This document shows, one piece after another, positions 7,969-21,236 of a DNA stretch of 32,000 nt. Origin of the DNA: Methanothermobacter sp. (GTDB taxonomy: Archaea; Methanobacteriota; Methanobacteria; Methanobacteriales; DSM-23052); assembly GCA_030055615.1 (NCBI GenBank), contig JASFYN010000001.1, positions 47,267 to 79,266 on the forward strand, in the 5' to 3' direction. The notes under the pieces were generated by a model. The model ran no database searches. It was given only the letters and a program-made list of their open reading frames with translations, and was not told the DNA's origin. Position numbers and translations under genes: made by a program. The stretch's first letter is position 1; the number at the start of each line of letters is the position of its first letter.

Positions 7969-8004
7969 ATGTAGAAGTTCATGAGATTTTATATGAACCC
8001 CACA

Positions 8005-8032
8005 TTATAAGTTATAACTTATAAGTTATAAG
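8005..8032. repeat. 2 x 14-nt tandem repeat built from inverted AAGTTA/TAACTT half-sites; candidate operator/centromere-like site
   Basis: TTATAAGTTATAAC (8005-8018) plus TTATAAGTTATAAG (8019-8032). It contains the perfect 14-nt palindrome TAACTTATAAGTTA (8015-8028) and sits immediately upstream of the parA TATA-like box. Confidence 0.8.
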
Positions 8033-8038
8033 GTATAC

Positions 8039-8046
8039 TTTATAAA
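8039..8046 (+). promoter_or_regulatory. TATA-like box of the parA operon
   Basis: TTTATAAA lies about 45-50 nt upstream of ATG 8091, with a GGAGG SD at 8080-8084. Position and composition fit an archaeal TATA box. No experimental support. Confidence 0.4.
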
Positions 8047-8090
8047 TGATAATTTAGAACTTATTATAGTTAAATTCTTGGAGGTTTTCC

Positions 8091-8867
8091 ATGGGTGAAA
8101 TAATATCCATTATAAACCAAAAAGGAGGCTGTGGTAAAACAACCACAGCAGTAAATTTATCAAGTGCACTCGCAATCCTGGGCAAAAAGGTTCTAATAGT
8201 TGATATAGACCCCCAAGCAAATGCAACAACAGGCTTTGGAGTCAACAAGGCAGAATTAAATTCAACAATATACTCTATTATAAGCGGAGAAGCAGAAATA
8301 GAAGAAACGATCCAAGAGACAATGATACCCAACTTGTATATTATTCCAAGCAACCTTGCCCTCAGTGGCGCGGAAGTGGAACTCACCAGCCAAATAGGCT
8401 ATCACACCATACTCAAAGAAGCTATAGACCCCATCAAAAAAGATTTTGATTACATATTCATCGACGCCCCACCATCTCTTGGAATACTAACATTAAACGC
8501 CCTTGTTGCGGGTGATAGCATTATAATACCAATACAAGCAGAATATTACGCCCTTGAAGGCATGGCTGACCTCCTTAAAACCATGAAATTAGTCGAAAGC
8601 CGCTTAAAGAGTCCATGCCCAATAAAAGGCATACTATTAACACTCTATGATGGGAGAACTCGACTTGGAAGAGAGGTTTACCAGGAGATCAAAAACTTCT
8701 TCTCTCCACAAGAATACATATTCAAAACAATAATACCAAGGAATATTCGCTTAGCAGAAGCCCCAAGCCATGGAAAACCATGCATAATTTATGACAAAGA
8801 CTGTAAAGGTTCCAAAGCATACCTTAAGTTAGCAGAGGAACTAATCAGAATGGAGGACGAAAAATGA
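8091..8867 (+). CDS. parA: ParA/Soj-family partition ATPase
   Basis: Deviant Walker A NQKGGCGKTTTAVNL, DIDPQANAT, and the C-terminal IIPRNIRLAEAPSHGKP block typical of chromosomal Soj. Confidence 0.9.
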   Translation: MGEIISIINQKGGCGKTTTAVNLSSALAILGKKVLIVDIDPQANATTGFGVNKAELNSTIYSIISGEAEIEETIQETMIPNLYIIPSNLALSGAEVELTSQIGYHTILKEAIDPIKKDFDYIFIDAPPSLGILTLNALVAGDSIIIPIQAEYYALEGMADLLKTMKLVESRLKSPCPIKGILLTLYDGRTRLGREVYQEIKNFFSPQEYIFKTIIPRNIRLAEAPSHGKPCIIYDKDCKGSKAYLKLAEELIRMEDEK

Positions 8868-9187
8868 CAAGACAAAATAAAAGTCTTGGAAAAGGTCTCG
8901 ACGCTTTAATAAAAGCAAAATCAACACCCACTCCACGAAAGAAACCTACCAGGGACACATTAACACCCCCAATCACATATCCCAAAGATAAAGTCAAAGA
9001 AGTTTTAGAAGAAGTTAAAAAGAACCCTAGGATAACATTATGGTCCGCAAGATCAGCTGCAGTTTTAAGATACTTAAAGAAGACAAAACCAGAATTCAGC
9101 ATAAGCAAAGAGGCGTCTCTATTAATCGAAGAAGCTGTTAAAAACAAATACCCTGAAATATGGGCTCTATTCTCAGAACTCAAATAG
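8864..9187 (+). CDS. small ParB-like partner: ParB N-terminal LGKGLDAL peptide, disordered linker and predicted ribbon-helix-helix
   Basis: 107 aa. ATGA overlap with the parA stop and its own GGAGGA SD (8852-8857). KSLGKGLDALI matches the conserved ParB/Spo0J N-terminal motif. The C-terminal RITLWSARSAAVLRYLKK...SISKEASLLIEEAVKNKY has strand-helix-helix spacing. Confidence 0.6.
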   Translation: MTRQNKSLGKGLDALIKAKSTPTPRKKPTRDTLTPPITYPKDKVKEVLEEVKKNPRITLWSARSAAVLRYLKKTKPEFSISKEASLLIEEAVKNKYPEIWALFSELK

Positions 9188-9189
9188 GA

Positions 9190-10317
9190 TTATTGAAAAT
9201 TATCTAAACTGCTTTGATAACCATCAATGTATAAGAATTTTTCAGCACGTTTAATCCACACACCCATCCCCTTAAGTTCATCTAGACTATTTATTCTGCC
9301 TTCTCTCCTTTTTGAGATTATCCTCCTTGCTGATATGGGGCCGATGCCAGGTACTCGTATAAGTTCATCGTAAGTAGCAGTGTTAATATCTAATGGAAAC
9401 ATGTCACTTTTGAGCGCTGCCACATACTTTGGATCCATCTCCAAGTCCAAAAATCCTTCATTGAATTCAAATTCACTTAATTTAAAATTATAAGATTTTA
9501 CCAATGCATCAGCTTGATATAAACGTATTGAACGCCTGGGATCTGGTTCTGGTTTATTCTCTAATGGAGTGCCTTCCAATGCTTGGAAACTACTGAAATA
9601 TATTCTTTTAATATTTAATTTATCATAAAGCCATGATATCCTCTTCAGAATTTCCTGGTCGGTTTCTTCAATTGCGCCTACAATGAATTGGGTGCTTTGA
9701 CCAGAAGGGGTGAGATCAGGATTCTTGTCATGAATTTTTTTTATCCATTTCATTCTCCTTATAATATCTATTTTATAGTCCTTGGTTGATGAAAGAGCTG
9801 AAAGTCCATCTGCTGTTGCTGTTTCAAGGTTGATACTCACCCTATTTGACAATTCCATGGCTCTTTTAATCAGTTCCCTTGAGGTTCCTGGCAAGATTTT
9901 AAGGTGTATATAACCATCGTATCCTTTATCATGGCGTAGAATCCTCACTACTTCAACGAGTTTTTCCATGGTATTATCAACATCATCTATCGTGGCCGAA
10001 CTTAAGAATAAACCTTCCACGTACCTTTTTTCATAATAGTCCATGAAAACCTTTGATAATTCACCTGGTTCTAATTCAATGCGCGTGAATTCCCGTTTAC
10101 TACAATTTAGACAATATTTACAATCGTTGTAGCATTTATTGCTAAGCAGAACCTTAAATAAGGGAACTTTACAACCCTTCATGCTACTATAATATATTCC
10201 AGGAAGATTTACATTCTTTTGTTTTTCATCTGCACTATAATCGCATAAATCAAATTGTGCAGAATCACTTAATATTTGCAATTTTCTTTTACGCTCCAAC
10301 ATAACCTCATATCTCAA
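9190..10317 (-). CDS. radical SAM protein of the putative DNA modification/repair family, with C-terminal helix-hairpin-helix
   Basis: CYNDCKYC (Cx3Cx2C), LFKVLLSNKC and YVEGLFLSSA resemble the TIGR03916-type family as I recall it. The C-terminal ELIRVPGIGPISARRII is a helix-hairpin-helix motif. Confidence 0.85.
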   Translation of the reverse strand: MRYEVMLERKRKLQILSDSAQFDLCDYSADEKQKNVNLPGIYYSSMKGCKVPLFKVLLSNKCYNDCKYCLNCSKREFTRIELEPGELSKVFMDYYEKRYVEGLFLSSATIDDVDNTMEKLVEVVRILRHDKGYDGYIHLKILPGTSRELIKRAMELSNRVSINLETATADGLSALSSTKDYKIDIIRRMKWIKKIHDKNPDLTPSGQSTQFIVGAIEETDQEILKRISWLYDKLNIKRIYFSSFQALEGTPLENKPEPDPRRSIRLYQADALVKSYNFKLSEFEFNEGFLDLEMDPKYVAALKSDMFPLDINTATYDELIRVPGIGPISARRIISKRREGRINSLDELKGMGVWIKRAEKFLYIDGYQSSLDNFQ

Positions 10318-20477: not shown

Positions 20478-21059
20478 TCATTCTTTTTTCAAGAATCTCA
20501 TGAACATCTTAAGGGTCTTATGGAGGCTTCTGAATCCTTCTTTATCTTTTTTAACACCCTCTAACGTGTCCTTTGACCAGAAACATGCGCCAAGATTTGC
20601 TCCGAATGATCCTCCGCTTATTGGTATCACGCCATTGGCTATATAAAAAGTGTGTATTTGTTGAATTGCAAGTTCTTGTCCTCCTGATCTGTCACCACCC
20701 ACGGCAATTGCCATTCCGATTTTCCCACGTAAAATATCATAATCCTTCATGTTGAGTGCTCGGCATCTGTCTATTATAATTTTTGTCTGGGCACTTAACC
20801 CACCATTGTAAACTGGTGTCGCCATTACTATGCCCTTTGCCCTTGGAAGGAGATCATAAAGGGTGTACATGTCATCTTTGTTTATGCATTCCTTTTTCTT
20901 TAGGCAATAATCGCAATGTTTACAAGGGTTCAAGTCTTTTCCTCTGACAGTGAAAAATTCTGTTTCATATCCTTCATCTTCTAGTCTGTTAAGCGCTTTT
21001 TTCAGAACGTATTCTGTGGCTTGTTTGCGGGGACTTCCGCATATGCCGATTACATCCAT
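20478..21059 (-). CDS. iron-sulfur flavoprotein (Isf / NADPH-dependent FMN reductase family)
   Basis: GICGSPRK flavodoxin-like N-terminus plus the compact Cys motif CKHCDYCLKKKEC (Cx2Cx2Cx5C) characteristic of methanogen Isf. Start at ATG 21059 after AGGTGA (21064-21069). A minus-strand TATA-like CTATAAATA at 21109-21117 disfavours the track start at 21098. Confidence 0.8.
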   Translation of the reverse strand: MDVIGICGSPRKQATEYVLKKALNRLEDEGYETEFFTVRGKDLNPCKHCDYCLKKKECINKDDMYTLYDLLPRAKGIVMATPVYNGGLSAQTKIIIDRCRALNMKDYDILRGKIGMAIAVGGDRSGGQELAIQQIHTFYIANGVIPISGGSFGANLGACFWSKDTLEGVKKDKEGFRSLHKTLKMFMRFLKKE

Positions 21060-21176
21060 TATTTCACCTGAATTCAAATCTTTTTTTAGAACAGCCATAT
21101 TCCTTTAATATTTATAGTTTTTGTGGTGTTGGATAGTTTTTTTTATTGTTTGTTGTGTACGGTTTTAAATTCACTG

Positions 21177-21212
21177 ATAACTTATAAATTATAACTTTTA
21201 ACTTATAAGTTA
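21177..21212. repeat. second cluster of TAACTT/AAGTTA half-sites, near-identical to the parA-upstream repeat
   Basis: ATAACTTATAAATTATAACTTTTAA (21177-21201) matches the reverse complement of 8005-8029 at 23/25 positions. The identical 14-nt palindrome TAACTTATAAGTTA lies at 21199-21212. Confidence 0.8.
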
Positions 21213-21236
21213 AAATCTTTGGATAATAAAAAAATG

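Follow-up and report, generated by a model that had tools for sequence, protein, structure and literature searches.

We analyzed a 32,000-nucleotide stretch of the Methanothermobacter contig JASFYN010000001.1 (hereafter the window), in which a parA gene (8091–8867, plus strand) is followed by a small gene encoding a 107-aa protein of the SegB family (8864–9187, plus strand). Our overall reading, to which we assign a probability of roughly 75%, is that this locus constitutes a chromosomal segAB-type DNA partition module that combines a ParB-type peptide and its ParA pocket with a centromere made of 7-bp repeats (heptads), and that operates by the mechanism proposed below. Both proteins have characterized homologues, the peptide motif and the pocket are conserved, and the heptad arrays are both conserved and phased in a non-random manner.

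To our knowledge, no archaeal chromosome-segregation system other than SegAB has been characterized, and work on SegAB has been confined to Sulfolobales. Orthologues of segAB in Euryarchaeota, including M. thermautotrophicus, have been reported from 2012 onwards (PMC5120986). More recently, Charles-Orszag et al. 2025 listed 22 euryarchaeal SegBs, proposed a transfer from Sulfolobaceae into the Methanobacteriales ancestor, described the N-terminus as poorly conserved in Euryarchaeota, and linked SegB to spherical cells (PMC12139799). The Sulfolobus SegB site derived from chromatin immunoprecipitation sequencing is TCTAGA-S-TCTAGA (S, G or C), with clusters near segAB and further chromosomal sites (PMC12284271), while Kabli et al. 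2025 reported no sites near segAB in Thermococcus and considered euryarchaeal sites to be probably different and still unidentified. The original prediction for our locus, made from the sequence alone, had called its architecture uncharacterized in methanogens: it has indeed never been characterized, but segAB orthologues had already been listed (PMC5120986, PMC12139799). The segAB literature examined did not mention the ParB-type motif, a Soj-type partner, or heptad arrays. The methanogen gene pair is already catalogued, but its tail motif and repeats seem to be previously undescribed.

A SegB homologue encoded next to a Soj-type ParA

In a phmmer search of the PDB, the 107-aa protein matched Sulfolobus solfataricus SegB (7DUV, E = 3.1e-8) and its DNA-binding fragment SegB-delta33 (7DV2, E = 2e-7), and a profile of 42 homologues matched 7DUV at E = 7.7e-14, covering SegB residues 4–100. 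SegB is a centromere-binding protein of the ribbon-helix-helix (RHH) type, and its N-terminus, which is unstructured, activates SegA (PMC8682754). Its published signature, K/R-D/N-P-K/R-I-G/T-V/L-W-S-Y/P-P/E (Charles-Orszag et al. 2025, PMC12139799), corresponds to residues 53–63 here (K-N-P-R-I-T-L-W-S-A-R), with agreement at the first 9 of 11 positions and differences at the last two. Given this homology to the crystallized SegB, we consider the protein a member of the SegB family and more than an analogue. The original prediction of a SegAB-like cassette was thus right about the kinship and too weak in its “like”, whereas its “mini-ParB” label does not apply to a SegB-family member without a ParB domain. 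Its predicted RHH is supported by the same homology, and the protein is, as had been argued, too short at 107 aa for the ParB core (no ParB match at E ≤ 1 in Pfam or NCBIfam).

The protein begins with MTRQNKSLGKGLDALI, continues through a P/T/K-rich stretch, and ends with NPRITLWSARSAAVLRYLKKTKPEFSISKEAS, all as originally quoted. The codons of residues 20–40 (8921–8983) specify a flexible linker, the length of which ranges from ~15 to >150 residues among homologues, and those of residues 41–103 (8984–9172) the SegB DNA-binding domain, expected by homology to be an RHH comprising a helix, the beta-strand NPRITLWS, and three further helices. An AlphaFold2 (AF2) monomer placed helices at residues 10–17, 41–53, 62–70, 82–95, and 97–102, i.e., in the order seen in SegB, with a predicted local distance difference test score (pLDDT) <50 across residues 21–36 of the linker. 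The protein was not assigned to any Pfam or NCBIfam family; there was no match to Pfam RHH, ParG, or omega models at E ≤ 1, no ParG or omega chain among the PDB matches at E ≤ 10, and no PADLOC match. Its homologues form 1310 clusters at 90% identity in rod-shaped Methanobacteriales, as compared to 57 clusters for Sulfolobales SegB, and the SegB family had 293 members at E ≤ 1e-3 among 1.84 billion representative proteins. One subfamily of 155–215 aa (P0198, P0200, P0208, P0211, P0212, P0216, P0219, P0225, P0228, and P0234) displays two tandem SegB-like DNA-binding domains and lacks the N-terminal ParA-binding peptide.

The partner ATPase (258 aa) carries the deviant Walker A motif KGGCGKTT within NQKGGCGKTTT, along with the Soj-typical block IPRNIRLAEAPSHGKP, both as first described. 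It matched Pfam AAA_31 at 4.7e-66 and, in the PDB, M. xanthus ParA (8RAY, 1.7e-72), T. thermophilus Soj (1e-59), and H. pylori Soj (2.5e-58), with alignments spanning residues 2–254 to 8RAY and 5–253 to 1WCV. Sulfolobus SegA (7DUT) ranked only 12th (5e-19), behind bacterial ParA/Soj proteins at 1e-57 to 1e-72. Identity reached 45% to M. xanthus ParA vs 33–36% to SegA, which at 220 aa lacks one segment. By these alignments, the ParA is of the bacterial chromosomal Soj type and not orthologous to the 220-aa SegA. PADLOC returned only two weak matches for it, both in the P-loop region (best E = 3e-5).

A ParB-type peptide and its probable pocket in ParA

Residues 6–16 of the small protein read KSLGKGLDALI, and the motif L8-G-K10-G-L12-D-A-L15-I16 (codons at 8885–8911, plus strand) fits the ParB pattern L-G-[RK]-G-L-x-A-L-[LI]. 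All 120 closest homologue clusters display [A/S/G]LG[K/R/M/L]GL[D/E][A/S]L[I/L] near the N-terminus, with L8, G9, G11, L12, and L15 invariant. When a 21-position motif profile built from 33 sequences was compared to 177,635 distinct PDB sequences, the best match was to residues 6–18 of T. thermophilus Spo0J (1VZ0, SGLGRGLEALLPK) at E = 0.045, i.e., marginal alone, yet the right protein in the right place, in line with the ParB likeness first proposed from the sequence. Searches with the peptide itself (phmmer with residues 1–25 or a concatenated artificial peptide, tblastn against plasmid sequences) yielded nothing, and only the 33-sequence profile had sufficient sensitivity.

In M. xanthus ParB, the ParA-binding motif spans residues 11–19; ParA binding depends on L11, L15, L18, and I19, and ATPase stimulation depends on R13, with R13A nearly abolishing it (PMC12462528). 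L8, K10, L12, L15, and I16 are spaced identically to L11, R13, L15, L18, and I19 of that protein, and AF2 predicted the motif region to be helical at residues 10–17. On the ATPase side, the pocket mapped in M. xanthus ParA (V116, L150, L152, L155, L187, and L192; PMC12462528) corresponds to V96, L130, I132, L135, L167, and L172 here, and Y81 and E117 to Y61 and E97. Across 80 Methanobacteriales partner ParAs, L130, L167, L172, Y61, and E97 were invariant, and positions 96, 132, and 135 were hydrophobic with one exception at position 96. The L152 equivalent of SegA is a Thr, and its L187/L192 segment could not be aligned.

Sulfolobales SegBs start with MSELD[F/L][L/I][L/I]KK, equivalent to the second half of the motif, to which the profile aligns LDALIKK. 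Among the 150 best family members, 80 carried the ParB-type motif (Arg at its center in 36, Lys in 35), including some from Archaeoglobales, and the full motif hence appears to be the common state of the SegB family outside Sulfolobales. We also compared the central residue (K/R vs M/L) to ParA positions 62 and 90: acidic residues were found solely with K/R partners, a covariation that is not interpretable since the 10 M/L cases come from related genomes.

Phased heptad arrays in the window

Upstream of parA, Tandem Repeats Finder identified 8.6 copies of a period-7 unit, TTATAAG, at 8005–8064. Read in a 7-bp register, positions 8005–8066 comprise nine units of TTATAA plus a spacer that is mostly G/C (TTATAA-G, TTATAA-C, TTATAA-G, TTATAA-G, GTATAC-T, TTATAA-A, TGATAA-T, TTAGAA-C, and TTATTA), so that eight of nine hexamers show ≤1 mismatch to TTATAA and five are perfect. 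The sixth unit is the likely TATA box (8040–8045, within the putative archaeal element TTTATAAAT at 8039–8047, plus strand), which we infer to lie ~45–50 nt before the parA ATG. Across 200 simulations under an order-3 Markov model and 200 shuffles preserving local composition, the longest in-register run never exceeded 3, while the window contains runs of 4 + 4 and 6; based on these 400 simulated or shuffled windows, chance does not account for the array. The 12-bp palindrome AAGTTATAACTT has one exact copy in the 32 kb and two sites at ≤1 mismatch, vs 0.15 expected.

The only other phased run of this kind in the 32 kb, six consecutive TTATAA-like heptads at 21175–21215, lies 13 kb from the operon in the spacer that separates two minus-strand genes, one for Fae/Hps and one for a flavoprotein, and is located upstream of the flavoprotein gene. 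This second array is kept in a close relative whose flanking spacer has diverged, and is absent from Methanothermobacter sp. THM-2. What had originally been described as a 2 × 14-nt repeat includes a genuine palindrome (TAACTTATAAGTTA, 8015–8028), and the degenerate copy noted at 8058–8072 is present as well, but the real extent of the element is the nine-heptad array plus the array 13 kb away. Next to the latter, the minus-strand open reading frame (ORF) at 20478–21098 is 206 aa long as called, with homologues of 193–194 aa. It probably starts at Met13, about position 21062, which would place the second array about 113–153 nt upstream of the start codon.

The Sulfolobus SegB motif TCTAGASTCTAGA was not found in the window, and the bacterial parS 16-mer had three window matches with 3 mismatches each, none of them near the operon, a result equaled by 11 of 100 shuffles.

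Conservation of the pair and of the arrays

Next, we scanned one genome per GTDB species, which identified 239 species with a relative; locus counts are from the best 80 of these 239. In about 78 of the 80 species loci, segB directly follows a parA of 255–267 aa and carries the motif, with the two genes often overlapping, i.e., the small ORF is co-conserved with parA as had been anticipated. Nearly all of the 80 loci were labeled as Methanobacteriales. The two otherwise labeled, L079 (CAVDAS010000003.1) and L015 (JBNGDB010000022.1), classified as “Bacteroidaceae bacterium” and “Methanomicrobiales archaeon”, are typical Methanobacteriales parA-segB loci with arrays, and their labels probably reflect mis-binning in the source metagenome-assembled genomes (MAGs).

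In-register arrays were detected upstream of parA in 71 of 78 loci, downstream of segB in 36, and in either position in 72. The 13-mer TTATAA-N-TTATAA reached 11.6/kb in the 220 nt before parA vs 0.5/kb elsewhere, and the “elsewhere” copies mostly formed further arrays shortly after segB or farther upstream. The perfect palindrome AAGTTATAACTT occurred once each in 7 of the first 10 loci, always immediately upstream of parA. Array spacers were C in 46% and G in 26% of cases. Overall, the arrays are the one part of the spacer that is conserved from genus to genus, and their position and size (between convergent gene ends, up to 55 heptads) support the original view that they are more than TATA boxes. 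Specifically, the array downstream of segB in L008 cannot be a promoter because convergent gene ends flank it, and L010 retains its array without thrS and the radical-SAM neighbor. Arrays include up to 18 units in Methanobacterium (12–18 heptads for those following segB) and 43–55 heptads upstream of parA in Methanobrevibacter, the latter spanning 300–385 bp in unbroken 7-bp register. From their sequence, these long arrays look like expanded centromeres (L079:703–1086, L076:1118–1417, L052:908–1151, and L014:2977–3101).

A related pair was also encountered among viral contigs. The IMG/VR contig L216 (953–2468), classed as viral, encodes a Soj-type ParA followed by a 258-aa SegB-like protein whose N-terminal sequence is MAKRSVMGKGMDALF and whose long, repetitive linker is rich in Ser, Glu, and Val. 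The parA-segB module may travel on mobile elements too.

Proposed mechanism

Since the methanogen arrays share the architecture of Sulfolobus SegB sites, we propose the following mechanism, in which the heptad arrays are probably the centromere of the operon's SegB. Dimers of the SegB-family protein would bind TTATAA hexamers every 7 bp via the RHH beta-ribbon and coat the 8005–8066 array, and probably the one at 21175–21215. The result would be a multivalent nucleoprotein complex comparable to that of Sulfolobus SegB on TCTAGA-S-TCTAGA. With each subunit extending a flexible linker that ends in the amphipathic LGKGLDALI, the arrays would present many peptides to ParA. The peptide would fold into a short helix and dock in the interface pocket (V96, L130, I132, L135, L167, and L172) of the ATP-bound, nucleoid-bound ParA dimer, with K10 predicted to lie near Y61 and E97. 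This docking would stimulate ATP hydrolysis and ParA release, like the N-terminal peptide of bacterial ParB, and the SegB-DNA complex would then travel along the ParA gradient. SegB would be expected to repress the operon as well, because its binding would cover the heptad that forms the putative TATA box.

Competing explanations

Several observations weigh against this reading. The match to the ParB motif covers few residues and, taken alone, reaches only marginal significance; its sequence does not distinguish convergence from common descent. E82 and D110, two of the four M. xanthus ParA residues proposed to touch the central Arg (PMC12462528), correspond to S62 and A90, and their equivalents are not conserved in the 80 ParAs. 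The M. thermautotrophicus/marburgensis clade has LGMGLDALI, with Met at the central Lys/Arg position, and some other lineages have Leu; the Met-type motif, seen in the segB products of L003, L004, and L013 and in proteins P0012–P0034, is preceded by two Lys (QKKGLGMGL). The AF2 monomer is mediocre (pLDDT 67.5) and has no beta-strand, and a Foldseek search of the PDB with it gave nothing significant, a result that we treat as uninformative because the model is a monomer of an intertwined dimer. Methanothermus fervidus (L005/L006) has parA-segB and no array within 4 kb on either side; its parA starts 14 nt after the upstream radical-SAM gene. TTATAA itself is TATA-like, and (TTATAAC)n microsatellites are found in unrelated metagenomic contigs without segB: a metagenome scan for (TTATAAS)4 recovered 120 contigs (L093–L212), none with segB or parA and nearly all uniform (TTATAAC)n or (TTATAAG)n heptanucleotide microsatellites in unrelated, often GC-rich sequence, so that the bare repeat is not diagnostic of SegB sites. 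Finally, no experiment on any methanogen SegAB is on record.

Four competing explanations were considered. Given the motif's nine residues and E-value of 0.045, its likeness to ParB could be coincidental or convergent, with the tail acting like the Sulfolobus SegB N-terminus (MSELDFLLKK...) or a ParG-type arginine finger and without docking in the pocket. The profile joins LDaLikkk to Sulfolobus LDFLLKKK, so that the motif may be a feature of the SegB family, the central basic residue is missing in some clades, and the E82/D110 equivalents are not acidic here. However, the peptide has the G-x-G spacing and each of the four hydrophobic positions known from the bacterial motif, and the partner is a Soj-type ParA in which the experimentally mapped pocket is intact, while Sulfolobus combines half a motif with a divergent 220-aa SegA in which the corresponding pocket is altered or unalignable; we consider this explanation unlikely. 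A similar, slightly lower probability goes to the possibility that the pair is not a segregation machine, i.e., that the RHH protein is an autorepressor or nucleoid organizer and that ParA positions other cargo or regulates replication. Soj regulates replication with DnaA in Bacillus, RHH partition proteins such as omega and ParG double as repressors, and the array here overlaps the promoter. Sulfolobus SegB has been proposed to be a chromosome organizer too (PMC12284271), and the 32-kb window contains no origin or cdc6 gene. Yet the strict conservation of the ParA-binding peptide and its pocket speaks for a functional cycle between ParA and its partner, a centromere would explain the long arrays away from promoters, and deletion or overexpression of segAB in Sulfolobus leads to segregation defects (PMC12139799, PMC12284271).

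The two remaining explanations are considerably less probable. The repeats could be ordinary promoter elements, i.e., degenerate TATA boxes or B recognition elements bound by TATA-binding protein and transcription factor B, in an AT-rich spacer and unrelated to the small protein: TTATAA resembles the archaeal TATA consensus, the heptad at 8040–8045 is the likely TATA box, and the second array is also upstream of a gene. This is very unlikely in view of the strict 7-bp phasing over nine units, which exceeds all 400 shuffles, of arrays that track parA-segB across genera while their flanks diverge and that L010 keeps without the usual neighbors, of the 43–55-heptad arrays of Methanobrevibacter, and of the post-segB arrays in 36 of 78 loci, which in L008 sit between convergent 3′ ends. 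A TATA-box-only reading was rejected on account of the arrays outside promoters. That the cassette serves an integrated plasmid or provirus and not the chromosome is the most improbable explanation, despite the related ParA and long-linker SegB-like pair on one IMG/VR contig. The gene order thrS-parA-segB-radical-SAM gene (the last on the opposite strand) is common to Methanothermobacter, Methanobacterium, and Methanosphaera; the window has the housekeeping gene content of an ordinary stretch of chromosome, neither an integrase nor any further mobile-element gene was found among its ORFs ≥180 aa, and IMG/VR provided only 2 matches in 2.9 million viral contigs. A mobile-element origin was rejected based on this conserved synteny and housekeeping context.

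Implications for SegB evolution and archaeal partition

If the partition module functions as proposed, methanogens couple an RHH DNA binder of archaeal type to the bacterial interface between ParB peptide and Soj pocket, and what is known about ParA activation in Myxococcus or Thermus could be put to a direct test in archaea. The (TTATAA-S)n arrays flanking parA-segB likewise provide a testable centromere candidate for the whole methanogen order.

More tentatively, the ParB-type peptide might be an ancestral, exchangeable “plug” of the SegB family, with the euryarchaeal system being original and Sulfolobus SegAB a derived offshoot, a possibility that we find doubtful as it stands. The original form would have combined a Soj-type ParA, a SegB with the full LG[KR]GLxALI, and TTATAA heptad centromeres, and the Sulfolobus offshoot would have retained the half motif MSELDFLL, a shortened SegA, and TCTAGA sites. 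If true, this would reverse the published Sulfolobaceae-to-Euryarchaeota transfer and break the link between SegB and spherical cells. A single short peptide would, moreover, link unrelated DNA-binding scaffolds, i.e., a bacterial CTPase clamp and an archaeal RHH filament, to the same ParA motor. The far greater diversity of the family in rod-shaped Methanobacteriales (239 species, 1310 clusters) than in Sulfolobales bears on both the origin and the cell-shape ideas, and this richness would seem to sit uneasily with the proposed direction of transfer.

Operon layout and genomic setting

The host is Methanothermobacter, a relative of M. tenebrarum: an identical copy of the 107-aa protein is on record in a Methanothermobacter sp. 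MAG, and the M. tenebrarum copy is 90% identical. As read from the sequence, parA is preceded by a Shine-Dalgarno GGAGG (8080–8084, plus strand), and the small gene has its own GGAGGA (8852–8857, plus strand) within the 3′ end of parA, whose TGA stop overlaps the ATG of the 107-aa ORF as ATGA; this overlap and second Shine-Dalgarno sequence had been noted initially and were confirmed. On the minus strand, 9190–10317 encodes a radical S-adenosylmethionine (radical-SAM) protein with a C-terminal helix-hairpin-helix domain, which ends 2 nt from the segB stop and matches TIGR03916 (putative DNA modification/repair radical SAM) at 8.6e-94, just under the cut-off. The convergent arrangement of segB and the radical-SAM gene is kept in several genera.

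Comparison with known systems

The closest system is SegAB-segS of Sulfolobus/Saccharolobus (SegB 7DUV and 7DV2, SegA 7DUT), of whose SegB the small protein is a sequence homologue. Both share a domain order of N-terminal ATPase-interacting peptide, variable linker, and (in the methanogen by homology) RHH with an xNP[RK]Ix[LV]WS strand, a small gene overlapping the 3′ end of the ParA gene, and, as candidate sites in the methanogen, palindromic hexamers at a 7-bp repeat with a G/C spacer, found near the operon and elsewhere on the chromosome. They differ in the ATPase (258-aa Soj type vs 220-aa SegA), the tail motif (full LG[KR]GLxALI vs MSELDFLL), and the sites (TTATAA in arrays of 4–55 units vs TCTAGA in 2 units). 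The DNA-reading Lys52 of Sulfolobus SegB is an Arg in euryarchaeal proteins, which is consistent with the different hexamer. In addition, the methanogen locus has thrS upstream instead of a segC-like gene, and the host here is a rod-shaped, FtsZ-dividing methanogen.

With bacterial ParABS (Soj/Spo0J of M. xanthus, T. thermophilus, and H. pylori), the module shares the ParA type, the hydrophobic pocket, the Y81/E117 equivalents, and a motif near the N-terminus (residues 8–16 here, 8–16 in T. thermophilus, and 11–19 in M. xanthus). The 107-aa protein has a predicted RHH instead of the ParB/Srx CTPase, helix-turn-helix, and C-terminal dimerization domains, and no parS-like 16-mer is found near the operon. 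CTP-driven clamp closure hence cannot gather peptides here, and multivalency would come from the heptad array.

Finally, type Ib systems such as omega/delta (pSM19035) and ParG/ParF (TP228) resemble the proposed module functionally, with a small dimeric RHH protein, a flexible N-terminal tail activating a Walker ParA, and arrays of short repeats overlapping their own promoter. The array architecture of omega, which binds 7-bp heptads in direct or inverted orientation, is especially close to the methanogen one. These systems have no detectable sequence homology with the methanogen protein, whose tail motif is of the ParB type and not of the ParG Arg-finger type, and the methanogen module is chromosomal and vertically conserved, with a ParA in the chromosomal Soj clade.

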